A DNA stretch of 64,000 nt from positions 4,886 through 68,885 of the forward strand of contig JBAQLR010000108.1 in NCBI GenBank assembly GCA_049302035.1, read 5' to 3'. Within the stretch, counting starts at the first letter, position 1. Every line of letters starts with the position of its first letter. The notes beneath the pieces are model-generated. The model ran no database searches. It was not told the origin of the DNA and saw only the letters and a list, made by a program, of their open reading frames with translations. A program made the position numbers and the translations under genes. This document shows, piece after piece, positions 25,729-64,000 of this stretch. Source of the stretch: Syntrophales bacterium (GTDB lineage: Bacteria; Desulfobacterota; Syntrophia; Syntrophales; JACQWR01).

Positions 25729-26083
25729 TGGTGGAGGCGGCGGGAGTCGAACCCGCGTCCGAAAACATTCCACTGAAGTTTCTACGTACGTAGACTTTGA
25801 TTTGCTTTCGCCCCCGAAAACTCCCAAAGTCAGGATTGATCAGGCGCTATTCCGTTATCTTTTCGCCCCTCCCCCGCCGGACAAAAGGGAGCAGTTATCC
25901 TGCCTGAATGACGCCCCCATCTGAGCCGACAGGCGAGCCCAGGAGAACGTTAGCCGACTAAGCGGCTAAAGCGTAATCGTAATTATCTGCGATTATGTTT
26001 TCCTACCTGTTTAACGAGGCCTGTAGGAACCTCGGTACGCTGCTGCAGCTTCAACTATCCCCGTCGAAACCGTGACGCCCCCA
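25729..26083 (-). ncRNA. ssrA: tmRNA (transfer-messenger RNA)
   Basis: On the minus strand the 5' end reads GGGGGCGTCACGGTTTCGACGGGG and the 3' end reads CGCGGGTTCGACTCCCGCCGCCTCCACCA. The internal tag frame at 25990-25958 is GCA GAT AAT TAC GAT TAC GCT TTA GCC GCT TAG = ADNYDYALAA*. Confidence 0.92.
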
Positions 26084-50442: not shown

Positions 50443-52296
50443 TCACTGCGGCATGTATTCCGGCACGATCTCTTTCAGTTTGCTTTTTATGGCCTCGGCA
50501 TCAAACCTATCCGCGATGACGACTAATTCATCAACCGCCGCCGAAATTTCTGCGTAGGAAAAATGATGATTTCCCCGCAGCACCATGATCTTTTCGTGAT
50601 GCGTCGGAATAATCCCCTCGCCTTCCGTAATCAGTTCTTCGTAGAGTTTTTCTCCCGGCCGCATGCCTGTCGTCACAATTTCGATATCTTTGCCTGGTTC
50701 TAAACCGCTTAGTTTGATCATGGAATGGGCCAAATCGATGATGCGCATGGGCTCGCCCATTTTCAGGATGAAGATTTCCCCACCCTTGCCCATCGCGCCG
50801 GCCTGCAAAATAAGCTGGGCGGCCTCGGGAATGCTCATGAAATAGCGGGTGACATCGGGATGGGTAATCGTTATCGGGCCGCCGGCGGCTATCTGTTGGC
50901 GGAAAAGGGGAATAACCGAGCCGGAACTGCCCAGCACATTGCCGAACCGCACGGCAAGAAATACCGTTTTAACACTGCCATTGAAGCTGGAAGAAAGAAT
51001 TTCGCAAATACGTTTTGTCGTCCCCATGACATTGGTGGGTCGCACGGCCTTGTCCGAGGAAACAAGGATAAATTTTTCGGCGTTGCAGGCGATGGCGGAA
51101 AGCGCCGTGTTCCTCGTTCCCAGCAGATTATTATGGACCGCTTCCCAGGGATTTACTTCCTGCATCGGCACATGTTTATAAGCGGCAGCATGGAAAACAA
51201 CCTGTGGTTTAAATTCCTGAAAGACACGTTCTGTCGCGCCGGGGTTCCGCAAATCGACAAGATAGGCGCAAACATCTTTATAGGCTAATATTTCCCGACA
51301 TTCCATCTCCACCTTATAAAGATTTAATTCGCTGAAATCCAGCAGGGCCAGAGCTTGCGGCCGAAATCGTGCAATCTGCCGCACGAGCTCCTCACCAATG
51401 GAGCCGCCGGCGCCGGTAATCAAAACGCGCTTCCCCAGGAGGTAGCTTTCTATCTCCTTATTGTCCAAGCGGACTTCCTCCCTGCCGATCAAGTCGGCGA
51501 TGGTGACTTCTCGCACCATCTTCAGGGAAACAAGTCCATCAATTAACTCGGCAATAGCCGGCATGGTCTTAAAAGGCTTGCCGGTACTTTTACACGCGAC
51601 GACAATACGTCGCATCTGAGTGCTGTTGGCCGAAGGCGACGTTATAAGAATCTCATCAAAAAAATCGCGATACGATTTTATCTGATCAATATTCCCCAGC
51701 ACGCAAATGCCATGGATAGATCTCCCTATTTTTTCATGGTCATCGTCGAGCAAACCGATGGGGACAAGCTTCACGCCGGGGTTTATCAGCATTTCGCGGA
51801 TAACGCGCTCCGCTGTTGTGCCGGCGCCAATGAGCAGCAACCTTTTGCCATCATGATGTTTTTCGTTCAGAAATAAAGACGGCCGCGTCTGCTCATTAGC
51901 CAAAGCAATGCGGATTGCCAGACGCGACCCGGCTATAAAGAATAACGTCAGTATGTAATCCATGATCACAATGGAATGTGAAAACCCCGCCAATCCGAAG
52001 AGAAATGTTTTGACCAGCACAAGCAGGACGGAGGCAGACGAAGTAGCCTTCAGAATATTCAGGAAATCCACCAGGCTGGTGTACCGCCACATCCCCCGGT
52101 AGAGATTAAAGACTATAAAACAAACCATCTTCAACGGCACGGCAACAAAGATGGTCTGCCTGAAAGTAACAAAGTAATCTTCCGGGATTCGCCCTTCAAA
52201 GCGCAACGCGTAAGCAAGGAAATACGCCAACCCGCTGAGAACTGCATCAACGGCAAACATCACCCAAAAGCTCTTATTCCTAACCAGTTGCTTCAT
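50443..52296 (-). CDS. membrane-bound nucleotide-sugar 4,6-dehydratase (CapD/PglF/WbpM-like)
   Basis: Four N-terminal TM helices, two Rossmann regions ('LLIGAGTTAE' and 'VLITGAGGSIGEEL') and 'MGTTKRICE'. Confidence 0.85.
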   Translation of the reverse strand: MKQLVRNKSFWVMFAVDAVLSGLAYFLAYALRFEGRIPEDYFVTFRQTIFVAVPLKMVCFIVFNLYRGMWRYTSLVDFLNILKATSSASVLLVLVKTFLFGLAGFSHSIVIMDYILTLFFIAGSRLAIRIALANEQTRPSLFLNEKHHDGKRLLLIGAGTTAERVIREMLINPGVKLVPIGLLDDDHEKIGRSIHGICVLGNIDQIKSYRDFFDEILITSPSANSTQMRRIVVACKSTGKPFKTMPAIAELIDGLVSLKMVREVTIADLIGREEVRLDNKEIESYLLGKRVLITGAGGSIGEELVRQIARFRPQALALLDFSELNLYKVEMECREILAYKDVCAYLVDLRNPGATERVFQEFKPQVVFHAAAYKHVPMQEVNPWEAVHNNLLGTRNTALSAIACNAEKFILVSSDKAVRPTNVMGTTKRICEILSSSFNGSVKTVFLAVRFGNVLGSSGSVIPLFRQQIAAGGPITITHPDVTRYFMSIPEAAQLILQAGAMGKGGEIFILKMGEPMRIIDLAHSMIKLSGLEPGKDIEIVTTGMRPGEKLYEELITEGEGIIPTHHEKIMVLRGNHHFSYAEISAAVDELVVIADRFDAEAIKSKLKEIVPEYMPQ

Positions 52297-52342
52297 AAGC
52301 TATCGCCTTCCTTCGGCTGCTACCGCCCCTGCTATGAGCGCT

Positions 52343-52379
52343 GCCATAAAATTTTAAAGACCTGCCCCCCAAAGTTGCA
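52343..52379 (-). repeat. CJR copy 0 (diverged)
   Basis: gccataaaattttAAAGACCTGcCCCCCAAAGTTGCA. It contains the stop codon of ATPase 1. Confidence 0.55.
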
Positions 52380-53667
52380 TGTTGTTCGGGGTTTGAAAAT
52401 CAATTTGGTTGTTGTCGATCGTCCGGGCGGTTTCCAGGGAACGATTCAGGATCACGAATTTTTCCGGGTGGTAGGCGTCGATGAAGCTGCGGCCGGAGCG
52501 ACTGAGCCCGGGCCGATCCAGATCGGCGAATTTGACTTCCATGGCCATGATTTTCCCCGCCTGTTCGACCACGAAGTCCACCTCCCCACCGCCCTTGCTT
52601 CTCCAGAAATGGATGTCTGAAGTCAGCGGTATACGTTTGTAAAGCTCCGAGAACGCCCAGTTCTCCATCAGGGCGCCTTTGTCGGTTCTCAACAAAATGT
52701 CGTCCGAAAAGGCATTGAGCAACTGATTCCGTATCCCGTTATCGATAAAAAATATTTTAGGCGCCGTGGTAAGTTCCCGGCGCTTCCCGCCGGCAAAGGG
52801 CCGGACAACTTTGACGATATGGCTCTCCTCAAGAATTTCCACGTAGGCATGGATCGTGCCCGCGTCCACACGGCACACCGAAGCCAGTTCCGAAAAATTC
52901 ACAAGATTTCCGGTTTGTCCTGCCAGCAACGTGAGGAGTTTCCGGAAAACATCCACCCGTTTGATGCGGAAGAGATCCGATGCGTCTCGCAGTATCAAGG
53001 CTTCGGTCAGGTCGGAGAGCAGGCGAACCCGATCCTGGTCCGCGGGCGCAAGATAAACGGCCGGGTAACTGCCGTGGATCATCTGCCGGTGGAAAATTCT
53101 CTCGCATAAACTCCTCATGGCGACAGGATTCTCCGGGGTTTCCTGTCGCATCAATTCCTTGAGACTGAACGGCAGCAGCCGCAGCCGGTCCGCCCTGCCC
53201 GCGAGGGATTCCCTTGTCTTGCTCATCAAGTGGAAGGATGAAGAACCGGTCACCAGAACGGGGATGCCCAATCTGGCGTCTACCAACCCCTTCACGAAGA
53301 TGCCGGCGTCGGTCAGGTGTTGGGCTTCGTCAAGAAAGAGGGCACGGATGAAGGAATAGCGTTCCCGGAGCAGCGAAACAAGCTCTACAGCAACGCCGAG
53401 GACCGAGCGCAGGAGCGGGTCTTCCAGATTGAGGTAAAGAATATTGGGCGCAAGAGATTGGAGAAGGCGCCAGGCAAGGGTGGACTTCCCGGATTGACGG
53501 GGGCCGACGATGAGGAGGGCGCGATCTTTCCGGAGCGAAACCGGTTCAGGCTCGCGCAGAACATAGGTTCCGGGAAGATAGCGACGAATCAATCCGTCGG
53601 CCTGGCCAGGCTGCGTCAGCCAGGGATTGTATTGAAGTATCCGGTTTTGGACTTCGCCACTCAACAT
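52354..53667 (-). CDS. DUF4143-type AAA+ ATPase with a C-terminal PD-(D/E)xK-like motif (COG1373-like), paralogue 1
   Basis: Walker A 'GPRQSGKST' and Walker B 'LFLDEAQH'. The C-terminal motif is 'FWRSKGGGEVDFVVE...AMEVKF'. An alternative GTG start lies at 53673. Confidence 0.8.
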   Translation of the reverse strand: MLSGEVQNRILQYNPWLTQPGQADGLIRRYLPGTYVLREPEPVSLRKDRALLIVGPRQSGKSTLAWRLLQSLAPNILYLNLEDPLLRSVLGVAVELVSLLRERYSFIRALFLDEAQHLTDAGIFVKGLVDARLGIPVLVTGSSSFHLMSKTRESLAGRADRLRLLPFSLKELMRQETPENPVAMRSLCERIFHRQMIHGSYPAVYLAPADQDRVRLLSDLTEALILRDASDLFRIKRVDVFRKLLTLLAGQTGNLVNFSELASVCRVDAGTIHAYVEILEESHIVKVVRPFAGGKRRELTTAPKIFFIDNGIRNQLLNAFSDDILLRTDKGALMENWAFSELYKRIPLTSDIHFWRSKGGGEVDFVVEQAGKIMAMEVKFADLDRPGLSRSGRSFIDAYHPEKFVILNRSLETARTIDNNQIDFQTPNNMQLWGAGL

Positions 53668-53673
53668 GGCCAC

Positions 53674-53702
53674 TGTCTATCCTGTCTAATAATGATTGTC
53701 AA
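53674..53702 (-). promoter_or_regulatory. candidate promoter abutting the ATPase-1 start (leaderless layout)
   Basis: On the minus strand: TTGACA (53702-53697), 17 nt, TAGACA (53679-53674), 6 nt, ATG (53667). Confidence 0.45.
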
Positions 53703-53969
53703 CCATAATCAGCCATCATAATCGGGGATGTCTGCAAAAATAGGAATGGATAGGCGCTGTCTGTCCCCGGAAAAGCTTACAAGCTGTTTCAATACGTGTT
53801 TTCTTACACTGCCGTAGAGGGCTTTGTATATCAATCGAGGTAATTCGTCAAACCCTGTATTCCATTTTCTTCACTCGCACTATAGAAGTAAGCCCTTTAT
53901 CGAAGGGAACCATAGCGCTTTACATATCCCCCCTTTTGTGTTGGCAAAAGCGGTGAAGGTTTCTATTGC

Positions 53970-54090
53970 GAGACCTTTGAATTTTGTCATTTCGAGGAGC
54001 ATTAGCGACGAGAAATCTTAATGCTCGTGTATAGTTAAAGATTTCTCCCTTCGGTCGAAATGACAATATTGGCAGTTATTCAAAGGTCTC
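53970..54090 (+). mobile_element. 121-bp MITE, copy A
   Basis: Terminal inverted repeats GAGACCTTTGAAT...ATTCAAAGGTCTC. It is about 97-99% identical to the copies at 60830, 62414 and 62926. Confidence 0.85.
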
Positions 54091-54111
54091 AATGACGCCC
54101 TAATTAACCGT

Positions 54112-54152
54112 CCCCCCGGCAAAACGCTAAAAAGCAAGACCTGACCCCCAAG
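54112..54152 (-). repeat. CJR copy 1
   Basis: CCCCCCGGCAAAACGCTAAAAAGCAAGACCTGACCCCCAAG, 6 nt downstream of the sugar-transferase stop. Confidence 0.85.
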
Positions 54153-54158
54153 TACTCC

Positions 54159-54734
54159 TTAATGGTGAACATTCTCCGCCCGCGTAACCTTAAAAAACGT
54201 CAAAACCAGTATCTTCAAATCAAACCAAAACGAGCAGTGATGCAAATAATACTCATCAAACTCCACCTTTTGGGGAATCGGAATATCATCCCGGCCGTTA
54301 ATCTGCGCCCAGCCCGTGATCCCCGGAATTAATCGATGAACACCGCGTTCCGTCCGCAAGGCAATCAGATCATCCTGATTGAACAACGCCGGCCGGGGCC
54401 CCACAAAACTCATATCGCCCTTCAAAACACTCCACAATTGCGGTAATTCATCCAGACTTGATCTTCGCAGAAAGGGACCAATTGGCGTCAGAAACTGATC
54501 GGGATCCGATAACAAGTGCGTCGCAACCGCAGGCGTATCAATACGCATCGTCCTGAATTTCGGCATACGGAAAATACTGTTGTCCTTACCAACCCGATCA
54601 GACCAATATAAAAAAGGCCCTTTTGATGTCGTTTTCACCAAAAGGGCAACAATAATCATCGGAACGATTAAGACTAAAAGAAGAATTATCGTAGCAGTTA
54701 AATCAAATAATCGCTTAACGACCTTATAAACCAC
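54159..54734 (-). CDS. small polyprenyl-phosphate sugar-phosphate transferase (PglC/WbaP-C-terminal type)
   Basis: One TM helix, then '[25 protein letters not shown]...[21 protein letters not shown]'. The start codon is GTG. Confidence 0.85.
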
Positions 54735-54790: not shown

Positions 54791-54850
54791 CAAAACACTA
54801 AGCAACTATGAACTAAGAACTAATAACTAAAAAGACCTGACCCCCAAAAC
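54791..54850 (-). repeat. CJR copy 2, with a central 4 x 7-bp expansion
   Basis: CAAAACACTAAGC-[AACTATG AACTAAG AACTAAT AACTAAA; 54804-54831]-AAGACCTGACCCCCAAAAC. Confidence 0.8.
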
Positions 54851-54854
54851 TTGC

Positions 54855-55253
54855 TCACCACAAAACGTGCAACCCGTTTTTACGGTACGCTGAAAAGGCC
54901 TTGTCCTGAGATATGAGCGTTAGTTTGTGAGTAATGGCCTGCCAAATAATCAAACGGTCAAAGGGATCTTTGTGTTCCTTGCGCGGCAGGTTGTGAAAGG
55001 TGGCCGCATCTGTATCGGCAAGCGGCAGGATGTCAAAACCCGATTGGAGAACAAGTGCGGGGAAGTTCTCAGGCGTTACATTGCCCAGGTCAAGCCTGCC
55101 AATAGAATACTTGAGGGATATCTCCCAAAAGCTGACCACACTGACCAACACGGCCATGTCGGGGTTCCGGATACTAATCGCAGCTTTTTTCCCAAGCCGT
55201 TCGGGATCAAAAAGCGACCAGAGCAACGTATGTGTATCAAGAAGGAAACTCAT
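54855..55253 (-). CDS. vapC: PIN-domain toxin
   Basis: 'MSFLLDTHTLLW' and 'HKDPFDRLIIWQA' are VapC signatures. Confidence 0.85.
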   Translation of the reverse strand: MSFLLDTHTLLWSLFDPERLGKKAAISIRNPDMAVLVSVVSFWEISLKYSIGRLDLGNVTPENFPALVLQSGFDILPLADTDAATFHNLPRKEHKDPFDRLIIWQAITHKLTLISQDKAFSAYRKNGLHVLW

Positions 55254-55495
55254 AGAGACAGAAACTCATTCTCACTGATCTTGAAGTCATCCTTTAGGGA
55301 AAACGATGCCTTCCCGGCCAAGAGCCCTAACTTACGTTCCGGTTTGCGTTCGTAGTGCGAAAAGGGAACCAGCACGGCTATCTTCTCCTTCTTTTTGCCG
55401 AAGCTGATGACGATGTCCTCACCCTGTTGCACTAATTCAAGCGCCTTTGAAAAATGCGCTTTCACGTTACCAACTGTCATGGTATGCATAGCCAC
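55250..55495 (-). CDS. Phd/YefM-type antitoxin
   Basis: 81 aa. 'VKAHFSKALELVQQGEDIVI'. Its stop overlaps the vapC start. Confidence 0.7.
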   Translation of the reverse strand: MAMHTMTVGNVKAHFSKALELVQQGEDIVISFGKKKEKIAVLVPFSHYERKPERKLGLLAGKASFSLKDDFKISENEFLSL

Positions 55496-55514
55496 TTACC
55501 TCATTTTTTATTTC

Positions 55515-55543
55515 AGTATATGCTTTTCGTGACATGTTGTCAA
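55515..55543 (-). promoter_or_regulatory. candidate promoter of the phd-vapC cassette
   Basis: On the minus strand: TTGACA (55543-55538), 17 nt, TATACT (55520-55515). A GAGGT Shine-Dalgarno sequence precedes the ATG at 55495. Confidence 0.55.
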
Positions 55544-55584
55544 GAAAATGAAGGCAGTGCTATAGTACACTCAGCACTATCTTT

Positions 55585-55624
55585 CCCCGGCAAAACGCTA
55601 AAATGCAAGACCTGACCCCCAAAA
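55585..55624 (-). repeat. CJR copy 3
   Basis: CCCCGGCAAAACGCTAAAATGCAAGACCTGACCCCCAAAA. Confidence 0.85.
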
Positions 55625-55631
55625 TCATTGC

Positions 55632-55925
55632 TTAAAGGGTGGCCGAATTGAGCCAGTCTTCCAGGTTGACGTTCAAGGCCATGTTCCTCTTTTTCAGCAG
55701 CAGGAGAAAGTCCCAGGTGTCCAAATCCAGCAGGCGGCAGGCTTCTTCAACGGAAAGATCGCCGGTCTGATACTTCGCCAAAAGCCTCTCCTGCCTGTCT
55801 TCTGCAAACCCTTTTTGCAGGATTTCCCGCAGATACGCCGACTTATCGAGGCGCATATCTTTGACAAACGAGGTTAGCTCCTTCAAAAACTCTTCAGGTA
55901 TCCTCACGGTTGCCGGTTTCAACAT
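55632..55925 (-). CDS. UPF0175-family antitoxin-like protein
   Basis: 'VRIPEEFLKEL...LAKYQTGDLSVEEACRLLDLDTWDFLLLLKK' fits the UPF0175/COG2886 pattern. Confidence 0.55.
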   Translation of the reverse strand: MLKPATVRIPEEFLKELTSFVKDMRLDKSAYLREILQKGFAEDRQERLLAKYQTGDLSVEEACRLLDLDTWDFLLLLKKRNMALNVNLEDWLNSATL

Positions 55926-56475
55926 TTCCCATCTCCTTCAGTATCAATAAAGCTTCAGCAATGATATCCGGTGCATACTGTCCCTCAATGCGCATCTTTT
56001 CAATGGCTGCTTTTGCCAAAGGTTTTTCGATGCATCCATGCCGGTACAGCTCCGTGGCGATCTTCGGGGATATGATAAAGGGCAGATTCAGAAATCTGCA
56101 TGTTTTAATGGCCTTCCCGTCGTCCGTGGCCAGGATCGCGCCTTCGCCCATCTCCTGTGCGAGCCTGATTGCCGCCCATTCCCCCTTGCCAAGCGTAAGG
56201 GGAGGCTTGCGATCCGGTAATTCTTTGGAGAATATTTCAATGTTTCCCTGTGAAGTCATGACGGATATACTTTTCGCATCGGGAAACTTCTCGATCGTAT
56301 CCTGATTGACCACTTCTTCGAATACCGCCGCCGGGATGATTGAGTCAAGACGAAAAACCAGAAACTGTAGAAACGCTAAAATGTGTATTGTTAAAAGGGT
56401 GCGGGCTGATTCGGAGAGCTTTTCCGGCTGGCCGGCAGCCCACAGGACAATGTGGGTATCGAGCAGCAGCTTCAC
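55894..56475 (-). pseudogene. chimeric ORF: VapC N-terminal fragment fused through a CJR half-site to an N-terminally truncated COG2405/DUF3368-like PIN protein
   Basis: Residues 1-29, 'MKLLLDTHIVLWAAGQPEKLSESARTLLT', are a VapC N-terminus. The linker 'IHILAFLQF' is encoded by the half-repeat at 56369-56384. The remainder, 'IPAAVFEEV...LGKGEWAAIRLAQE...ILATDDGKA', is DUF3368-like and lacks its first Asp segment. Confidence 0.55.
56369..56384 (-). repeat. CJR half-site (distal half only)
   Basis: AGAAACGCTAAAATGT matches the repeat up to its centre, after which the similarity stops. Confidence 0.6.
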
Positions 56476-56732
56476 GAAGGCGTTCCTTCAAAAAGTTCGA
56501 CCAGCGACCTTGCCGCCAGAGAATCAAAATCGTCGGGTACCGCAATCTCACCGGCCATAAACCCCAGCTTTTCAGCCCCTTGCAACTCCCCTTCCGATAG
56601 CGGCGAAACCTTAACCATCGGCTTGCCTGCCTTGGCAATGATAAAAACATTCCCTTTGGCGGCCTCATCGACCAGGCGTGAAAGGTGCGTCTTCGCTTCG
56701 TGGATATTGACGGTTTGCATGGAACACCTCAT
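56472..56732 (-). CDS. Phd/YefM-type antitoxin
   Basis: 86 aa. 'VNIHEAKTHLSRLVDEAAKGNVFIIAKAGKPMVKV'. Its stop overlaps the truncated vapC start (ATGA). Confidence 0.7.
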   Translation of the reverse strand: MRCSMQTVNIHEAKTHLSRLVDEAAKGNVFIIAKAGKPMVKVSPLSEGELQGAEKLGFMAGEIAVPDDFDSLAARSLVELFEGTPS

Positions 56733-56799
56733 AGGACTTAGTTTAGTGGGCTAAGCCTAATCTTCTCATATTCAGCCTTTGTCAAGTTTTCCTCTTGCT

Positions 56800-56839
56800 C
56801 CCCGGAAAAACGCTAAATGTTCAAGACCTGACCCCCAAA
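56800..56839 (-). repeat. CJR copy 4
   Basis: CCCCGGAAAAACGCTAAATGTTCAAGACCTGACCCCCAAA. It contains the mazF-like stop codon. Confidence 0.85.
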
Positions 56840-57186
56840 TAGAGGCTGTTCTTGAGCGCCATGTCCACCTTTTCCATGAGCTCATCTGAGAGAGTCGCAA
56901 GTTTCGACCCGGTCAACCGCCCCTTATCGAGGGTGCGGATCTGTGAGAGATTGACGATGGAATCCTTTTTCAGGCCGGAATCTTTGCCGATGACTACGCA
57001 GATTGGGTAAGTAGCTTTTTTCTCGGAATATTCGGTGATGACGGCGACGATGGTCGTGGGTGAATACCGATTGCCGACATCGTTCTGAACAATCAGCACC
57101 GGCCGGGTTTTTCCGGTTTCGCTTCCCACCACTGGGTCGAGCGCTGCGTAATAGATTTCTCTTCTTTTGACCTGCAGAGGAGTCAT
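56821..57186 (-). CDS. MazF/PemK-family toxin
   Basis: 'REIYYAALDPVVGSETGKTRPVLIVQNDVGN'. Confidence 0.85.
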   Translation of the reverse strand: MTPLQVKRREIYYAALDPVVGSETGKTRPVLIVQNDVGNRYSPTTIVAVITEYSEKKATYPICVVIGKDSGLKKDSIVNLSQIRTLDKGRLTGSKLATLSDELMEKVDMALKNSLYLGVRS

Positions 57187-57461
57187 GGAGCAACCTCGGG
57201 GAGATTTTCGGCGTCAGAGAATTTGAAATCCTCACAGATACGGATGTTTTCCTCGGCGAGATCCTGATAGGCTGCTTTCATTCGTGCCTCGAGATCCTGC
57301 CTGTCGAGCTGCATTAATTTTTCCTCGATGGATTCCCGCACGAGTGTGGAAACATTTTTCCCTTCCCGGGTAGAGGCTTGGGAAAGCCTGTTCTTGATCT
57401 CTGCAGAGAGTTGAATATTGAGCCGCGTTTTTTCCTGCTGTGCCGTTGAGAGCATTTTCAC
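57183..57461 (-). CDS. ribbon-helix-helix (CopG-like) antitoxin
   Basis: 'RLNIQLSAEIKNRLSQASTREGKNVSTLVRESIEEKL'. It overlaps the toxin start. Confidence 0.65.
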   Translation of the reverse strand: MKMLSTAQQEKTRLNIQLSAEIKNRLSQASTREGKNVSTLVRESIEEKLMQLDRQDLEARMKAAYQDLAEENIRICEDFKFSDAENLPEVAP

Positions 57462-57542
57462 ACCTCTATTTTATGTATAAATGATGTGTAATATCTTGTA
57501 GCAAAAAACGACAGGGAGAGCAATGGAAAATCTTCCCCACCT

Positions 57543-57589
57543 CCCCGGCAAAACGCTAAATTTCAAGACCTGACCCCCAAAAAGTTGCA
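57543..57589 (-). repeat. CJR copy 5 (closest to consensus)
   Basis: CCCCGGCAAAACGCTAAATTTCAAGACCTGACCCCCAAAAAGTTGCA. It encodes the last 10 codons of ATPase 2. Confidence 0.9.
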
Positions 57590-58734
57590 ATATTTTGCCA
57601 GGGGACTATCGAAATGTTTTTGTTGGTCAGGGCTTTATCTCCGCCATAAATTAGCCGGGCCGGCGCTTCCGGCTGCCCGGCCAGCTTCAGCCAACGCTTT
57701 AGTGACGTGAAGGAATCCGGAGCGATTGTCTGCCCCGATTTAATTTCGATTGCCTCGAGTTCCTCGCCCTCTTCCCGGATCAGATCGATTTCCAGACCTT
57801 TACTATCTCTCCAATAAAAGAGATTTGCCGGCAGCCCCTCGTTGAAGCGGCCTTTTAAAAATTCGGTCACCACAAACGTCTCAAATAGCGCTCCCCGCTG
57901 GGCATGAAAGCGAACCTGTTCCGGGGTGTTAATTCCCAGCAACCAGGCCGCCAAACCGACATCGCAGAAATACAACTTGGGTGCCTTGATCAAGCGTTTA
58001 TTGAAGTTCCGGTGATGGGGGCGCAGCAGATAGATCAGATAACTCGCCTCCAGGACGGATATCCACGCTGCCGCGGTATTATGCGTAATGCCGCAATCGG
58101 AGGCCAGTGATGACAAGTTCAGAATTTGACCGGTGCGGGCGGCGCACATCTTGACGAAGCGCTGGAATGCCGAGAGATCGCGGACGTTGATCAACTGTCG
58201 CGCATCCCGTTCCACATAGGTGGCGATGTAGCCGGAAAACCAGTCGCCGGAAAAAATGTCACGGTCGTACAGCGGGGGGTACAATCCCCGCACCAGCAGC
58301 TCTTCAAGAGAATCAGGCAGCTGCCGAACAGCGGCAAGCTCTTCGGCGGCAAAGGTCAGCAGGTGTATCATCCCGACACGCCCCGCTAATGATTGAGTAA
58401 TGCCCGACAGCAGCCCAAATTGCTGAGAACCGGTCAATACAAACATACCGGGGATGATTTTCTCATCCACTTTTGTCTGGAGATAGGAGAAAAGGTGCGG
58501 CGCACGCTGAGCTTCATCCAGGATCGCGCCGTCACGAAAAGCGGCCAAAAGACCTCGGGGGTCGCTTTCCGCCGTGGCTCTGACATCGGGATCTTCCAGC
58601 GACAGATAGGGTTTTTGGGGGAAGGTCAGTTTTGCCAGCGTGGTCTTGCCGGATTGACGCGGCCCCGTAATGGCAACGATGGGAAAGCCTTTTGCCAGAC
58701 GGAGCAGGGCTTTTTGTGCTGTTCTCGGTATCAT
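57556..58734 (-). CDS. DUF4143-type AAA+ ATPase/nuclease-like, paralogue 2
   Basis: Walker A 'GPRQSGKTT' and Walker B 'AILDEAQR'. The C-terminal motif is 'YWRDSKGLEIDLIRE...AIEIKSG'. Confidence 0.8.
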   Translation of the reverse strand: MIPRTAQKALLRLAKGFPIVAITGPRQSGKTTLAKLTFPQKPYLSLEDPDVRATAESDPRGLLAAFRDGAILDEAQRAPHLFSYLQTKVDEKIIPGMFVLTGSQQFGLLSGITQSLAGRVGMIHLLTFAAEELAAVRQLPDSLEELLVRGLYPPLYDRDIFSGDWFSGYIATYVERDARQLINVRDLSAFQRFVKMCAARTGQILNLSSLASDCGITHNTAAAWISVLEASYLIYLLRPHHRNFNKRLIKAPKLYFCDVGLAAWLLGINTPEQVRFHAQRGALFETFVVTEFLKGRFNEGLPANLFYWRDSKGLEIDLIREEGEELEAIEIKSGQTIAPDSFTSLKRWLKLAGQPEAPARLIYGGDKALTNKNISIVPWQNIATFWGSGLEI

Positions 58735-58740
58735 GGGTGC

Positions 58741-58791
58741 ATATTATGCGGAGTTGCACATATTGTCAATACAATTTACAATATGTGCAAC
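58741..58791 (-). promoter_or_regulatory. candidate leaderless promoter plus a perfect 14-bp inverted repeat
   Basis: On the minus strand: TTGACA (58769-58764), 17 nt, TAATAT (58746-58741), 6 nt, ATG (58734). The inverted repeat GTTGCACATATTGT (58753-58766) / ACAATATGTGCAAC (58778-58791) overlaps the -35 element. Confidence 0.5.
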
Positions 58792-58792
58792 T

Positions 58793-58824
58793 CAAAACGC
58801 TAAATTTCAAGACCTGACCCCCAA
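58793..58824 (-). repeat. CJR copy 6
   Basis: CAAAACGCTAAATTTCAAGACCTGACCCCCAA, directly after the PIN-gene stop (58825-58827). Confidence 0.9.
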
Positions 58825-59223
58825 TTACTTGCTAATTGCAGACCAGAATCCTCTTGGGGTCACGATTTTCGTGTCCTTATAGGCAAGCAGACATAATAAA
58901 TCCTGGTCTCCCGTGATTATGTATTCTGCCAATGAACGGTGAGCGAGGCCCAACACATGAATATCGTTCTTATCTCTGCACAATGACTCATCTAAATCAT
59001 CGGTCCCGGAAACAAGACAATTTTCTCTCAAATACGACACGATCAACCGGCATTGCGGTAAGGGGAGCTTGATTTTTCGCTCTAAATTTGTTGATACTTC
59101 CGCTAAAATCGCTTCACTCACGATGACATCAAACCGGTCAAGGCAGAGCTCGAAAACTGCGCTGCAGAGCCCACGACTGGCAAAGGCAGCAATGATCACA
59201 TTGGTATCAAGAATGACCTTCAT
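58825..59223 (-). CDS. PIN-domain toxin
   Basis: 'MKVILDTNVIIAAF' and 'YIITGDQDLL'. Confidence 0.8.
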   Translation of the reverse strand: MKVILDTNVIIAAFASRGLCSAVFELCLDRFDVIVSEAILAEVSTNLERKIKLPLPQCRLIVSYLRENCLVSGTDDLDESLCRDKNDIHVLGLAHRSLAEYIITGDQDLLCLLAYKDTKIVTPRGFWSAISK

Positions 59224-59438
59224 GAAATCATGTTGAATATATCTTCATCAGACAATATGCCCTGCGCCTCTGCAAATGGCAGTACCATATTTTTTAACCT
59301 GCGAAAGCGGTAAATAGCCAAATACCGTTTTAAGGATTCGCGCACGATATCACTCACCGGTTTATTCTCGTTTCTGCTTAATTCCTGCAACCCTTCTCTC
59401 ATGTCATCGGGCAGCCGGATAGTAAGAGTTTGATTCAT
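59220..59438 (-). CDS. ribbon-helix-helix antitoxin
   Basis: 'LTIRLPDDMREGLQELSRNENKPVSDIVRESLKRYL'. Confidence 0.65.
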   Translation of the reverse strand: MNQTLTIRLPDDMREGLQELSRNENKPVSDIVRESLKRYLAIYRFRRLKNMVLPFAEAQGILSDEDIFNMIS

Positions 59439-59453
59439 AGAGCACCTCCATTC

Positions 59454-59489
59454 GTGTTACAACGTAACACGCCCTGGTATTGCTGTCAA
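59454..59489 (-). promoter_or_regulatory. candidate promoter and operator of the RHH-PIN cassette
   Basis: On the minus strand: TTGACA (59489-59484), 17 nt, TACGTT. The palindrome GTGTTAC-aac-GTAACAC (59454-59470) overlaps the -10. A GGAGG Shine-Dalgarno sequence precedes the ATG. Confidence 0.45.
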
Positions 59490-59519
59490 CAAAAAACCGC
59501 GCAATAACATCGGGACAGA

Positions 59520-59559
59520 CAAAACGCTAAATTTCAAGACCTGACCTCCAAAAATTGCA
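59520..59559 (-). repeat. CJR copy 7
   Basis: CAAAACGCTAAATTTCAAGACCTGACCTCCAAAAATTGCA. It contains the ATPase-3 stop codon. Confidence 0.9.
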
Positions 59560-60679
59560 TTTCTGACAACCAGTTTTGAGCGGTGCGGATTTCCAGGCCG
59601 TCGGGATAGGTTTTTTCCCTTTTGAGTTCCTTGACAATCTGGATTTTTTTTGCGCCGGGCAGATATTTCTCGAATAAAGAAAATTTCGCACGACCCTCCG
59701 CATCGCTCCATTTAACTTCGAGCATCAGTGCCGGCTTATCTTCCCTGGTGAGAAAAAAATCAATCTCCCTGCCGTCCTTGTTTCTGAGGTAATAAACGTT
59801 CCATTTTTCGCCGAGGCAATCCTCGCGGAAATGCATTTCTTTCAGCAAGGCACAGGCAACAAGATTTTCCAGCTTCATTCCCGGATCATCCGGCGCCTGC
59901 CCGGTATCGTAAAAATAGTATTTGGGCGCCTTGAGAATGGACCGGGAAATGTTGCGATGAAAAGGGGGTACCTTGAAAACGACATAGAGTGTTTCCAGAA
60001 TAGTCAGCCATCTCTTGACGGTCTTGTCCGAACACTGAAGATCCTCGGCCAGCGAGCTGTATGATATGGGACTGCCAATCTTTCTCCTCAGAAGCTGGAT
60101 GAGTGTTTCAAACGAAGTTATCTGCTGCACATTTTCCAGATCGATCAAGTCCTGCTTCAGAATGATGTCCAGATGGCTTCTCTTCCAGCGATTGTAATAG
60201 GACGCATCGCTTTCCAGAAAGGGCTCAGGAAATCCGCCGATCGCCAAAAGCCTGTCAAGTTTTTCCTCCAGTTTATCTGGCCCCAGCACACTTTTAATTT
60301 CCTTCAGATCAAGGGGGTGGAGCCGAAACTCAAAAAACCTTCCCGCCAGGGAATCGCCTGCCTTTTTAAAGACATCCAGCTTTGCGCTTCCGGTCACCAC
60401 CAGGGAAGGCGGGATGCTTTCGGCATCGTAGATGCCCTTCAGCCATGATTTCCAGTTCTTGAGTTTGTGAAGCTCGTCAAAAATCACCAGATCTTTGGAG
60501 CGATCCCATGACTTATCCAGCAGACTCAGGCGGTGTTCGGCATAATCATAATTGAAATAATCGAAATTATGACTGAGCATCTTTGCCAGGGTCGTCTTGC
60601 CGACCTGTCTCGGGCCGGTGATCAGGACGATTTTTCTTTTAAGATCTTTCTGAATGTATTCTTCGAGGTATCTCTTCAT
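59534..60679 (-). CDS. DUF4143-type AAA+ ATPase/nuclease-like, paralogue 3
   Basis: Walker A 'GPRQVGKTT' and Walker B 'VIFDELHK'. The C-terminal motif is 'YYLRNKDGREIDFFL...MLEVKWS'. Confidence 0.8.
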   Translation of the reverse strand: MKRYLEEYIQKDLKRKIVLITGPRQVGKTTLAKMLSHNFDYFNYDYAEHRLSLLDKSWDRSKDLVIFDELHKLKNWKSWLKGIYDAESIPPSLVVTGSAKLDVFKKAGDSLAGRFFEFRLHPLDLKEIKSVLGPDKLEEKLDRLLAIGGFPEPFLESDASYYNRWKRSHLDIILKQDLIDLENVQQITSFETLIQLLRRKIGSPISYSSLAEDLQCSDKTVKRWLTILETLYVVFKVPPFHRNISRSILKAPKYYFYDTGQAPDDPGMKLENLVACALLKEMHFREDCLGEKWNVYYLRNKDGREIDFFLTREDKPALMLEVKWSDAEGRAKFSLFEKYLPGAKKIQIVKELKREKTYPDGLEIRTAQNWLSEMQFLEVRS

Positions 60680-60685
60680 GCGGCT

Positions 60686-60728
60686 ATTCTATCCTGCATT
60701 CCGAAAAAGTCAAGACTTTTTCGGAATG
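60686..60728 (-). promoter_or_regulatory. candidate leaderless promoter plus a 15-bp inverted repeat
   Basis: On the minus strand: TTGACT (60713-60708), 16 nt, TAGAAT (60691-60686), 6 nt, ATG (60679). The inverted repeat CATTCCGAAAAAGTC (60697-60711) / GACTTTTTCGGAATG (60714-60728) is centred on the -35 element. Confidence 0.5.
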
Positions 60729-60741
60729 GCTGCCTGTTCCT

Positions 60742-61113
60742 ATGGACATTATAGCCATGCAGCATTCAGGTTTAAGTGTGAGACAAATTGCCCGTAAACT
60801 GGGCATTCACAGAAATACGGTGAAGAAGCGAGACCTTTGAATTTTGTCATTTCGGGGAGCATTAGCGACGAGAAATCTTAATGCTCGTGCATAGTTAAAG
60901 ATTTCTCCCTTCGGTCGAAATGACAATATTGGCAGTTATTCAAAGGTCTCGCAGCATATTGAGAACAAAGCGTTTCCTCATTACCATCAGTCTAAACGAG
61001 GCGTAAGCATTCTGGAACCATATAAGCAAATCATCAACGATTACCTTGACCAGGATGACTACCAGGCAACCTGGGTTTTCGATAGAATCAAAAGGACCGG
61101 ATATCCCGGTTTC
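60742..61113 (+). pseudogene. IS21-family istA 5' remnant, split by a MITE and truncated at a CJR
   Basis: It reads 'MDIIAMQHSGLSVRQIARKLGIHRNTVKK', then the MITE, then 'HIENKAFPHYHQSKRGVSILEPYKQIINDYLDQDDYQATWVFDRIKRTGYPG'. This is an IstA-type HTH N-terminus and nothing follows it. Confidence 0.6.
60830..60950 (+). mobile_element. 121-bp MITE, copy B
   Basis: Same element and orientation as copy A. The flanks GAAGC / GCAGC look like an imperfect 5-bp duplication. Confidence 0.85.
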
Positions 61114-61153
61114 CAAAACGCTAAATTTCAAGACCTGACCCCCAAAAGTTGCA
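61114..61153 (-). repeat. CJR copy 8
   Basis: CAAAACGCTAAATTTCAAGACCTGACCCCCAAAAGTTGCA. It contains the ATPase-4 stop codon. Confidence 0.9.
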
Positions 61154-62282
61154 GTTTTTCTATTAAGGTGGGGAGGCTCACAAATGTTACTTCTATCCCT
61201 TTGTAATTTCTGCTAAACGGTTTTTCGACATCCGTGGCCGCCACCAGGGAATCTCCTTCGGGATAACGTTCACGAAACAGTTTCAGATTACCCGGATCGA
61301 AATCGGTCGCCGACCATTTGCATTCAATCGCCACCGGCGGCTTTCCTCTTGCGGCGATCACAAAATCAATTTCATGACCGCGCTTATCACGCCAGTACAT
61401 CACATTCCTCATCTGGAGACGTCCCTGAATCTCGTTCAGGACATAATGCTCCCAGAGCAGCCCCCGGTCTTCCCGCCGGAGTTCACGCCATCCCCGGTAA
61501 TAACAGACAAATCCCGTATCAAAGCCATACACTTTGGGAGCGGAAATGATCTCCGCCGCCTTGTTGCTGCTGAAGGGCCGGACAATGTGCGCCACGTAGG
61601 TCGCCTCGAGAACGGCAAGGTAATTGGCAATGGTCGGCCGGCTGACCTCGCAGGGTCCGGTAAAGCGTGATGCCTCAAAAATGCCGCCGCTCTGCGCCAT
61701 CAGCAGCTCGAAAAACCGCTGGAAGGCGTGTCGACGGCCCAGATGAAAGAGCTCTTGAATATCTTTCGCCCAATAACCGTCCACCCAATCCTGGAAATTC
61801 CGCTCCGGCACGGTCTCGGATAAATAGAACGGCGGCATTCCCCCAAAAAGCAGCCGCTTCGCCAGATCGGCATCCCCGAAATCGGCAAGATCCTGCACCA
61901 GCATGGGGGTGAGCCAGAGGGACTCCTTGCGGCCCGTCAGCGTATCCTTGAATTTGGCGGATGCGCCCAGGGTGGAAGAACCGGTGGCAAGAATCCGCAC
62001 ATCCGGATAGTGATCTGCAGCGATCTTGAGAAGCTCCGAGGGATTTTGCAGACGATGGATTTCGTCGAGGATGATCGTGCGCCCCCGGAGGGGTCGAAGA
62101 AACCCTTCGGCATCTTCCAGCATCGCCCGAACACGGGGCAGCTCGCAATCGAAGTATTCAGCATCCGTAAGACTCTGGCTCAGAAAGGTCTTCCCCACGC
62201 GCCTGACCCCGGAGAGCCAGATCACCGATCGCCTTTCCCAAGCCTTGCCTATCTGTTCCAACCAGAATGATCTTTTCTTCAT
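61128..62282 (-). CDS. DUF4143-type AAA+ ATPase/nuclease-like, paralogue 4
   Basis: Walker A 'GVRRVGKTF' and Walker B 'IILDEIHR'. The C-terminal motif is 'MYWRDKRGHEIDFVI...AIECKWS'. Confidence 0.8.
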   Translation of the reverse strand: MKKRSFWLEQIGKAWERRSVIWLSGVRRVGKTFLSQSLTDAEYFDCELPRVRAMLEDAEGFLRPLRGRTIILDEIHRLQNPSELLKIAADHYPDVRILATGSSTLGASAKFKDTLTGRKESLWLTPMLVQDLADFGDADLAKRLLFGGMPPFYLSETVPERNFQDWVDGYWAKDIQELFHLGRRHAFQRFFELLMAQSGGIFEASRFTGPCEVSRPTIANYLAVLEATYVAHIVRPFSSNKAAEIISAPKVYGFDTGFVCYYRGWRELRREDRGLLWEHYVLNEIQGRLQMRNVMYWRDKRGHEIDFVIAARGKPPVAIECKWSATDFDPGNLKLFRERYPEGDSLVAATDVEKPFSRNYKGIEVTFVSLPTLIEKLQLLGVRS

Positions 62283-62288
62283 GCAACC

Positions 62289-62317
62289 ATAATTTCACAT
62301 AGTGACACTAATTGCAA
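62289..62317 (-). promoter_or_regulatory. candidate leaderless promoter of ATPase 4
   Basis: On the minus strand: TTGCAA (62317-62312), 17 nt, AATTAT (62294-62289), 6 nt, ATG (62282). Confidence 0.4.
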
Positions 62318-62335
62318 GTAAAACATCATTTAGTA

Positions 62336-62348
62336 CAAAACGCTAAAT
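62336..62348 (-). repeat. CJR half-site (distal half only)
   Basis: CAAAACGCTAAAT, after which similarity to the consensus ends. Confidence 0.6.
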
Positions 62349-62413
62349 CACCGCGAAGCAGGCCCGATAGTTTTGGTTGAGGCAAACCCATACGGCGCCC
62401 GGCTTCCTCTTGT

Positions 62414-62534
62414 GAGACCTTTGAATAACTGCCAATATTGTCATTTCGACCGAAGGGAGAAATCTTTAACTATGCACGAGCATTAAGATTTCTCGTCGCT
62501 AATGCTCCTCGAAATGACAAAATTCAAAGGTCTC
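62414..62534 (-). mobile_element. 121-bp MITE, copy C
   Basis: Reverse orientation relative to A and B, flanked by a direct CTTGT duplication. Confidence 0.9.
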
Positions 62535-62770
62535 CTTGTGACAAGCCAAGATTGCGCACAGCCTTAGTGATTTCAATCACGAGCCCAGACTTGATTTTGA
62601 GTTTATCGGCCTCAGGCAAGTCAAGATCGGTTTGCGGTTCACGGACGTTTTCCAGCGGTCTAAGAAATCAGTAACGGTGCGTTTCATGGATGACTAAATA
62701 CACTATGTGTGTATTTTCTGCAAGGACTATTTACCTTAGACAGGTGTTACTTCTCAGTGCGTAGCTCCCA

Positions 62771-62806
62771 CCCCGGCAAAACGATAAATTTAAAGACCCC
62801 CAAAAC
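62771..62806 (-). repeat. CJR copy 10 (variant with a 5-nt internal deletion)
   Basis: CCCCGGCAAAACGATAAATTTAAAGAC-----CCCCAAAAC. Confidence 0.75.
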
Positions 62807-62846: not shown

Positions 62847-63267
62847 ATGTACGAGATTATGCAGAGTGCCACATTCTCCCAATGGTTGAGTGGCTTGAAA
62901 GACCAACAGGCACGAATGCGCATACGAGACCTTTGAATAACCGCCAATATTGTCATTTCGACCGAAGGGAGAAATCTTTAACTATGCACGAGCATTAAGA
63001 TTTCTCGTCGCTAATGCTCCTCGAAATGACAAAATTCAAAGGTCTCGCATACATGTGCGACTTGACCGTGTTAGGTTGGGCAATTTTGGTGATGCAGAGC
63101 CCACTGGGGAAGGACTTTCCGAATTGCGTATTCACTACGGCCCAGGTTATCGGCTATATTACATTCGGCGCGCGCTACGGGTCGTGATGTTGTGCGGTGG
63201 CGATAAGTCCTCTCAGCCCCACGATATTGAAAAAGCGAAAATAATCGCTAAGGAATGGAGGGATTAG
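62847..63267 (+). pseudogene. higB: HigB/RelE-type 'addiction module killer' toxin gene interrupted by a MITE
   Basis: It reads 'MYEIMQSATFSQWLSGLKDQQARMRI', then the MITE, then 'HVRLDRVRLGNFGDAEPTGEGLSELRIHYGPGYRLYYIRR...CGGDKSSQ'. Removing the MITE and one GCATAC copy restores the frame. Confidence 0.75.
62926..63046 (-). mobile_element. 121-bp MITE, copy D
   Basis: Same orientation as C, flanked by a direct GCATAC duplication. Confidence 0.9.
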
Positions 63268-63561: not shown

Positions 63562-63633
63562 TGAGAGCTTTGCATAACTACGATTTCACCCCCCCGGCCC
63601 ATTTATCGACAACGACAACCTCCGCAGGCTATT

Positions 63634-63999
63634 TTAGACGCAGCTACCGTCCCAATACTGTTCGGCCCCTAATTTGCTTATCATTTCGAAGGTTCTTTTT
63701 GTAGGTTTGCGTCCTGTCCAGAGGGTAATGAGCATGCCTGAGATCAGGGCGCAATAGATTTGTATGGTTAGCCCGTTTTTAGATAGGGCGACGAGGTGAT
63801 TGCACCCGAGGACGCATTTGAACCACCGGAAGAAGAGTTCGATCTGCCAACGGCGCGTAAAGAGAAGAGCAATGGTTTCTGCCGGCAGGTCCAGGAGGTT
63901 CGTTGCCAGTAGTAAGTTGTAATCGACATCCTTGGTGCGAAAGGTTTTCTTGCTGGAAACCCTTGAGGGTCTATGATCGTTTTCATCCCCTTTGTGGAA
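63634..63999 (-). mobile_element. IS4-family DDE transposase, C-terminal 121 codons (the gene continues beyond the window)
   Basis: The minus-strand frame from 63999 reads '...ETIALLFTRRWQIELFFRWFKCVL...', a Y(F)-x2-R-x3-E-x6-K-type motif. The stop codon is at 63636-63634. Confidence 0.7.
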
Positions 64000-64000
64000 A

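Follow-up and report, generated by a model that had tools for sequence, protein, structure and literature searches.

The 64-kb stretch of a Syntrophales bacterium genome analyzed here (contig JBAQLR010000108.1; hereafter the window) carries, between 52.3 and 62.8 kb, ten plus-strand copies of a repeat of ~30 nt that bounds small toxin-antitoxin (TA) and candidate defence gene cassettes; the rest of the window is free of copies. Each copy is a solo terminal inverted repeat (TIR, ~26-30 nt) of the TIRYT elements ("TIRtrons"), whose Y1/HUH transposase resembles the tyrosine transposases associated with repetitive extragenic palindromes (REPs), termed RAYTs, and belongs to TnpA-Y1 subclass 2.1. 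A preliminary description of the window had singled out four rearrangements of the repeat (two half-sites, one expanded copy and one copy with a 5-nt deletion), and had read their clustering as a sign that DNA is cut and rejoined at the repeat's centre, either by an enzyme or by recurrent replication slippage. Such a central cut or strand-exchange point is not established; we consider it likely (probability roughly 0.6) that the four events record the decay of an array of solo TIRs by slippage and microhomology-mediated deletion, with no single crossover point.

GTDB species genomes were scanned for a 23-nt core of the repeat, which yielded 100 core-bearing blocks (640 kb of repeat-bearing loci), mostly in Syntrophales metagenome-assembled genomes (MAGs), others being long contigs of Chlorobiaceae, Elusimicrobia and Aminivibrio; loci and contigs from other genomes and metagenomes that bear the repeat or the transposase are designated below by L-numbers (L001 etc.). 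The proteins that recur in the repeat loci are DUF4143 ATPases, TA components, and a Y1/HUH protein of ~150-290 aa. The last matches Pfam Y1_Tnp and the NCBIfam REP-associated tyrosine transposase (NF047646, 72-91 bits; cut-off 80), and its alignment (A3) displays the motifs NH[YV]H, [FW]Q and Y[IV]xxNP, which fit subclass 2.1 (PMC6006769). A metagenome scan with alignment A3 of the Y1/HUH protein alone produced 80 loci (308 kb), in which the right arm of the repeat, AAGACCTGACCCC, is present in 126 copies with at most one mismatch, against ~0.4 expected. These loci were picked by TIRYT homology alone, and this result was decisive in identifying the repeat as the TIR of TIRYT elements. Inverted copies with outer ends GGGGTCAGGTCTTG... 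flank the TIRYT gene, upstream in 66 of 78 cases, downstream in 42 of 55, and on both sides in 39 of 53; the inverted repeat of these units has a median length of 26 nt, and the median distance from outer end to outer end is 927 nt. The outer end GGGGTCAG is found both in the window copies and in the TIRYT-flanking copies, and fits GGGGWSAS, the motif shared by TIRYT TIRs; these make up families of moderate abundance, with single, dimeric and clustered copies (PMC3733652).

The repeat consists of two modules: an outer box, (C/A)AAGACCTGACCCC, that is constant across the whole TIRYT clade, and an inner module that varies by subfamily and is here GCAAAACGCTAAA plus a 3-nt variable centre. Only two of the 80 metagenome TIRYT loci (L105 and L167) have the AAAACGCTAA-type inner module; TIRs of this subfamily flank TIRYT genes in L105, L067 and L046, and Y1 genes are carried by six MAG loci with the window's TIR subfamily (L005, L035, L046, L047, L067 and L087). 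What had been called the centre of the repeat is the A/T-rich seam that joins the inner module and the outer box. When ~210 copies were compared, the arms proved nearly invariant, with variation confined to the 3-nt centre. Copies occur singly, in co-oriented runs, and as head-to-head dimers, and their orientation relative to neighbouring genes is not fixed. By its consensus the repeat is numbered G1-CAAAACGCTAAA13, T14-T15-T16, C17, AAGACC23, TGACCCC30. A right-arm search of the window gave 10 matches against 0.6 expected, and the window holds in total ten co-oriented solo TIRs and two left-arm remnants:

52340-52372 (+), degenerate TIR copy, overlapping the 3' end of the DUF4143 gene at 52354-53673; right arm with 1 mismatch
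54119-54148 (+), solo TIR, centre AAG (from sequence match and flank alignment)
54791-54845 (+), solo TIR with a 7-nt x 4.7 expansion (54797-54830) between left arm and outer box
55590-55619 (+), solo TIR, centre ATG
56370-56383 (+), left-arm remnant (half-site 1); 3-5 nt of filler link it to vapC codon ~29
56805-56835 (+), solo TIR, centre with one extra nucleotide (TGTT), A at position 2
57548-57577 (+), solo TIR, centre TTT
58793-58821 (+), solo TIR, centre TTT
59520-59548 (+), solo TIR, centre TTT, 1 mismatch in outer box
61114-61142 (+), solo TIR, centre TTT; a truncated HTH (transposase-like) open reading frame (ORF) abuts its left edge
62336-62348 (+), left-arm remnant (half-site 2), product of a 166-nt deletion
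62776-62801 (+), solo TIR lacking 5 nt of the outer box (GAC[CTGAC]CCC) and carrying C>A at 62784

The ortholog of the 52340-52372 copy in L078 is likewise degenerate. On both strands, single copies show no attC-like fold and fold no better than shuffled sequences (z -1.8 to +1.7). Rfam, at gathering and E-value thresholds, returned only the tmRNA and, on dimers, spurious miRNA-like matches, none of them relevant to the repeat. No match was found to the repeat as a literal string in the literature, nor to the dimer by BLAST against PLSDB plasmids and INPHARED phages or by a pattern scan of IMG/VR. Other candidate identities were discarded: the repeat bears no resemblance to a tRNA/tmRNA 3'-end attachment site; resemblance to sigma-54, promoter or dif/Xer sequences was rejected by eye; and a Tn3 inverted repeat was rejected, with the ACGCTAA motif on the wrong strand and no 5-bp duplication.

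The repeats, both half-sites and the 7-nt expansion are all present where they had been placed. Half-site 1, GAAACGCTAAAATG, adjoins vapC at codon ~29, and intact Phd-VapC cassettes in L020 and L186 reveal the part that was lost. A 193-aa ORF here (55894-56475, minus strand) joins, in one frame, VapC codons 1-29, the TIR remnant and an ORF without Pfam match; near the junction this last part lacks its own start codon, and it lies beside the UPF0175 gene. Half-site 2, CAAAACGCTAAAT, abuts the interior of an XRE/HTH_37 antitoxin gene (profile positions 4-54 of 80), and the intact repeat at this locus is kept in L054 and L186. Contigs L186 and L187, close relatives of the window at 95-97% identity, share its Phd protein unchanged and have the order XRE (intact, 111 aa), TIR, DUF4143_d, TIR, Phd, VapC (intact), disrupted TIR, DUF4143 (444 aa). 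Comparison with them shows that half-site 2 arose by loss of 166 nt between ...CTAAAT| and ...GAAAAAT|, with a 4-nt microhomology (AAAT); the deletion took TIR positions 15-30 and the last 36 XRE codons. The XRE fragment is truncated at its 5' end too, at ~62632 (XRE codon ~21), with a GG microhomology and outside any TIR.

Tandem Repeats Finder describes the expansion of the second intact copy by period 7, 4.7 copies, at 54797-54830, and similar expansions of a heptamer are found in L055 and L091 and, outside this subfamily, in L121. The deletion in the copy beginning near 62771 is real, but it lies in the right arm, 6-10 nt off the centre to which it had been assigned, and sits between the direct repeats GACC/TGACC; the same 5-nt loss, starting at 22|23, recurs independently in L074 and L087. 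As for the substitutions reported in that copy, TTTA-AAGACC is a common family allele, and only C>A at 62784 is private. Three of the four events are of slippage or microhomology type. The AAAT deletion at half-site 2, the GACC/TGACC loss, the recurrent expansions and the junction at 62632 outside any TIR therefore favour slippage, one of the two origins originally proposed, over an enzyme with a defined cut site. Slippage or microhomology-mediated joining would be enough to explain the events: the array may consist of cassettes in decay between solo transposon ends, in which short microhomologies (AAAT; GACC) would mediate the deletions, the inner module, with its 7-8-nt periodicity, would slip in tandem to give the heptamer expansion, and small indels would arise within the A/T run. 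A putative TIRYT nick near the centre is possible as the initiating lesion.

The claimed clustering at the centre holds for two, arguably three, of the four events, and central enrichment of breaks within the window is real: two of eight endpoints of gene-truncating junctions fall in the centre stretches, which make up ~0.7% of the array (p ~1e-3, an estimate). In the wider set, a census of about 300 copies, breakpoints range from position 8 to position 27, and the A/T-rich centre shows no more than a mild excess. Where the left arm is kept, breaks lie at positions 8 (L020), 8 (L186/L187), 13, 14, 16, 16, 18, 22 (three times), 25, 26 and 27; other changes at the centre are indels of ±1-2 nt and nested inserts of 26-33 nt in L035, L059 and L094. 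The observation that both half-sites keep the same, distal half is true in the window and does not extend beyond it. With breaks so spread and either half retained, the larger set comes close to contradicting the proposed cut point, although right-only copies are confounded: the outer box is common to all TIRYT subfamilies, and a right-only "break" appears at the seam because subfamilies differ there, so that right-arm-only copies were rejected as proof of a central break.

Several observations weigh against the reading of the array as decaying solo TIRs of TIRYT elements. No TIRYT gene lies within the 64-kb window, as judged by a tblastn search for the Y1 gene, so that TIRYT activity in this genome is hypothetical. 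Three of the eight deletion endpoints in the window fall in TIRs (~3% of the sequence), two of them central; this enrichment implies that the TIR is fragile, and some property of it, possibly enzyme nicking, may be the cause. Tandem duplications in 13 of 210 copies consist of CTGACCCC plus 5-9 nt of flank, with a period of 9-18, directly after the TIR, and their left edge is constant at GAC|CTGACC (carriers: L024, L029, L034, L052, L055, L059, L071, L076, L087 and L100; duplications of this kind are also present in L105, L106, L110, L114, L117 and L121); often without microhomology, they look more like the product of a fixed nick than of random slippage. The centre allele follows the left flank in 7 of 11 cases and the right flank in 4 of 12, which hints at a preferred exchange right of the centre. 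Finally, the junction of half-site 1 consists of filler nucleotides and not of a clean microhomology.

TIRs coincide with the boundaries of gene cassettes. The genes between the window copies are all on the minus strand and comprise PIN/Phd, PemK/RHH and PIN_3/RHH pairs, UPF0175, and four AAA_14-DUF4143 ATPases, which PADLOC files under the defence candidate PDC-S01; several ORFs terminate inside the right arm of the repeat:

52354-53673 (-), cassette with AAA_14-DUF4143 ATPase, between sugar transferase and CapD-like gene
54855-55495 (-), cassette with PIN (VapC) and Phd/YefM
55632-56732 (-), decayed cassettes: UPF0175, fused ORF (VapC codons 1-29, remnant and unassigned ORF), Phd/YefM
56821-57461 (-), cassette with PemK/MazF toxin and RHH antitoxin; toxin ORF ends within the outer box
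57556-58734 (-), cassette with AAA_14-DUF4143 ATPase (PADLOC PDC-S01)
58825-59438 (-), cassette with PIN_3 and RHH
59534-60679 (-), cassette with AAA_14-DUF4143 ATPase
61128-62282 (-), cassette with AAA_14-DUF4143 ATPase (DUF4143_d)
62629-62775 (-), upstream region and first 17 codons of the 444-aa DUF4143 gene, fused at ~62632 to XRE; 92% identity to L186

The remaining 48 kb of the window hold polysaccharide, tryptophan and housekeeping genes. Between loci, 87 of 237 ends of homology blocks lie within 60 nt of a TIR, against 4% expected, and several blocks are bounded by TIRs on both sides in two genomes with differing neighbours. Since the same cassettes stand in other orders in related genomes, TIRs are sites at which gene order has been reshuffled. 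Of the pairs of neighbouring TIRs, 87 are co-oriented and 43 opposed (24 of the latter being dimers), at a median spacing of 776 nt, and the window's run of nine co-oriented TIRs is the longest in the set. The window also has 4.3 kb (56836-61113, three and a half cassettes) that are missing from L186, where a single TIR combines the left flank of the 56805 copy with the whole of the 61114 copy; at 3-5% divergence the exchange point in this difference is not placeable, and nothing in it points to the centre.

The cassette island stands inside a polysaccharide locus (50443-54734), where the DUF4143 cassette and TIRs split a sugar transferase gene (54159-54734) from the CapD-like gene (50443-52296); TA genes, DUF4143 and TIRs also adjoin sugar transferase or CapD homologues in other MAGs (L025, L063, L073 and L078). 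At the window edge, just past the HigB/HigA-like pair that closes the array, lies the start of a DDE_Tnp_1 transposase gene (63603-64000, minus strand).

Head-to-head TIR dimers form perfect 26-bp hairpins located 4-12 nt past the stop codons of convergent genes (L001, L013, L017, L031, L048, L058, L068, L079, L085, L095-L097 and L100). The centre alleles of the two arms agree in nearly all of them, and the loops are often TTGCTTCGCAA or TTGCGAAGCAA, containing the stable GCGAAGC mini-hairpin. Target-site duplications were not found around dimers, save in L058 (1110-1260), where the 3' end of the upstream gene, stop codon included, is present as a 28-nt direct duplication on either side of the dimer. 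A related locus in L068 (5019-5143) has one copy of the 28 nt and no dimer.

The most serious alternative to slippage is that the TIRYT enzyme nicks the single-stranded TIR at the inner edge of the outer box, on the top strand at ~16|17 or on the bottom strand at ...GGTCTTG|NNN, which would make the centre a true cut point. Cuts at two co-oriented TIRs would then excise or insert cassettes, as at IS608 ends or with relaxases at a duplicated oriT, and aberrant joining of a nicked end would produce half-sites. The repeat is indeed the TIR of an HUH enzyme family; the TIRs of the array are co-oriented, as single-strand cleave-and-join chemistry demands, and mark the cassette boundaries; five of the 13 left-arm remnants end at positions 13-18; the centre allele goes with the left flank; and the tandem duplications keep a constant left edge. 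The dimers, with their 26-bp hairpins and frequent GCGAAGC-type loops, suggest a single-stranded DNA substrate, and their general lack of target-site duplications is what HUH transposition predicts. However, half-site 2 and the 5-nt deletion bear classic microhomology, breaks occur also at 8|9 (L020, L186) and at 22-27, a lone TIR offers the enzyme neither hairpin nor partner for recognition, the 4.3-kb difference from L186 lends central exchange no support, and TIRYTs have no published biochemistry (PMC3733652, PMC6006769). We regard a nick at this place as a real possibility, but a less likely one than slippage. Less probable again, and in our view rather unlikely, is the bolder proposal that co-oriented solo TIRs are the working sites of an HUH-driven, integron-like cassette system that builds defence and TA islands across phyla. 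In such a system a TIRYT supplied in trans would cleave two adjacent TIRs on the same strand, the TA or defence cassette would leave as a single-stranded circle, and the circle would re-insert at another TIR, with cleavage at the centre or at the GAC|CTGACC edge.

Two further candidates for the acting enzyme appear very improbable. If the repeats were integron- or Xer-like sites, a distant tyrosine or serine recombinase would exchange strands in the central spacer; co-oriented repeats that bound single 0.5-1.3-kb TA or defence cassettes do recall chromosomal integrons, and a variable centre between two conserved arms has the expected layout. But the repeat has neither dyad symmetry nor an attC-type hairpin and is not fixed in orientation relative to genes, no recombinase was found among the window ORFs, a motif scan (not a hidden Markov model search) of ORFs of at least 100 aa in the 100 repeat loci (640 kb) found no tyrosine or serine recombinase motif, and the repeat is the TIR of TIRYT genes; this reading is close to refuted. 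The DUF4143 proteins (AAA_14 plus a PD-(D/E)XK-like domain), put forward earlier as enzymes that might bind or cut the repeat, fare no better. Each of the four DUF4143 genes of the window has its end in or at a repeat, they are the commonest cargo (17 genes in 14 of 100 repeat loci), and the family is listed in a PD-(D/E)XK survey (PMC3424549). Against this, no DUF4143 homologue is present in the 80 TIRYT loci (308 kb) with their 126 outer boxes, the DUF4143_d ortholog in L054 has no repeat at its 3' end, TA cassettes lacking DUF4143 are bounded alike, and PADLOC classes the proteins as a defence candidate. Their absence from TIRYT loci marks DUF4143 as cargo and not as a partner enzyme.

As a kind of repeat, then, the TIRtron TIR is already known, though obscure: TIRtrons/TIRYT (Di Nocera et al. 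2013, PMC3733652), TnpA-Y1 subclass 2.1 (Quentin et al. 2018, PMC6006769) and Bertels group 1 RAYTs (PMC5581495) are the same group, found in ~15% of sampled strains (PMC6006769). The present elements agree with TIRtrons in having a Y1/HUH gene of ~150-290 aa, inverted repeats of 20-35 nt with outer GGGGWSAS, dispersed TIRs that stand alone, in dimers or in clusters, corresponding HuH, W/F-Q and Y-x-x-x-NP motifs, and an occurrence that is common in delta-proteobacteria and patchy across phyla; the subclass 2.1 signatures (NHVH/NH[YF]H; W[EQ]/FQ; Y[IV]xLNP; no REP hairpins) are likewise found in the TIRYT protein and the repeat. The window differs in having solo TIRs only, with no TIRYT gene, and in its long co-oriented runs that bound TA and PDC-S01 cassettes shuffled between genomes, which the cited TIRtron papers do not describe; the hosts of the TIR subfamily (AAAACGCTAA...) are uncultured Syntrophales, Chlorobiaceae and Elusimicrobia. 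With the REP/REPIN-RAYT systems of E. coli and Pseudomonas it shares a domesticated IS200-like Y1 transposase, short inverted repeats dispersed in extragenic space, and hairpin-forming head-to-head doublets just downstream of convergent genes. Unlike REPs, the single repeat is not palindromic and has no GT[AG]G foot, one 23-nt core extends across phyla, and singlets dominate, co-oriented in arrays; a classical REP or REPIN, an imperfect palindrome with a 5' GT[AG]G foot, was thus rejected, as only head-to-head dimers fold.

Chromosomal integrons offer a parallel in layout, with repeats in one orientation every 0.5-1.3 kb, TA and defence cassettes that carry promoters, ORFs that enter the repeat, and cassette content that varies among close relatives. 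In contrast to integrons, IntI and attI are both missing. The 30 conserved nt form one contiguous, asymmetric and unstructured block, without the R''/L''-L'/R' boxes and hairpin of an attC site, and neither are they an Xer/dif-like (pdif) site of two inverted 11-bp arms around a 6-bp spacer (28 bp). IS200/IS605 elements (IS608, ISDra2) belong to the same enzyme superfamily and also lack target duplication, and two cleavages on the same strand would fit co-oriented repeats; unlike IS608, with its subterminal hairpins and tetranucleotide target, TIRYT ends are plain inverted repeats without a known cleavage site.

Other repeats share the array with the TIRs. An element of 121-123 nt resembling a miniature inverted-repeat transposable element (MITE), with ends GAGACCTTTGAAT...ATTCAAAGGTCTC, occurs at 53968-54090, 60828-60950, 62414-62534 and 62926-63046, the copies being 98-99% alike. 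Three of them disrupt ORFs: one lies in an HTH/transposase-like ORF, one in the XRE antitoxin fragment and one in a Gp49/HigB-like toxin. Direct repeats (CTTGT; GCATAC) border two of the copies, and fragments of the element adjoin TIRs in L006, L016 and L028. The HTH_23-type ORF at 60743-61113 (plus strand), which resembles a transposase N-terminus, is split by a MITE-like copy and breaks off, 82 residues in, precisely at the left edge of the TIR at 61114. Small palindromes (GGGGACAGATTTCAAATCTGTCCCC; AATAGGGnnnnnnCCCTATT; GCGCACCTTTCGGTGCGC) are located in or beside TIRs at L186 2562-2640, L020 1950-2012 and L032 1040-1075, and in L030, L065 and L084; two of these insertions lie exactly past position 8 (AAAACG|). 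Elsewhere in the window, a tmRNA gene with the tag ADNYDYALAA (25729-26082, minus strand) has no relation to the repeat, and two polysaccharide/chain-length ORFs contain in-frame tandem repeats (20936-21088, 51 nt x 3; 22150-22293, 36 nt x 4).

What is new here is a TIR subfamily with a two-module anatomy, its spread across phyla, and long co-oriented arrays of solo TIRs that bound TA and PDC-S01 cassettes and mark where they are reshuffled. TIRYT (subclass 2.1) enzymes are without a demonstrated substrate, cleavage site or role; the window and its relatives supply a well-defined two-module TIR, natural variants of it (dimers, solo arrays, remnants and nested insertions), and two candidate nick positions, the centre and GAC|CTGACC. 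In uncultured anaerobes, these repeats mark the boundaries at which TA and candidate defence genes reshuffle. If the enzyme is not the driver, the arrays are merely decaying islands strewn with transposon ends; if it does drive the shuffling, they would represent a second route, besides integrons, to cassette arrays.

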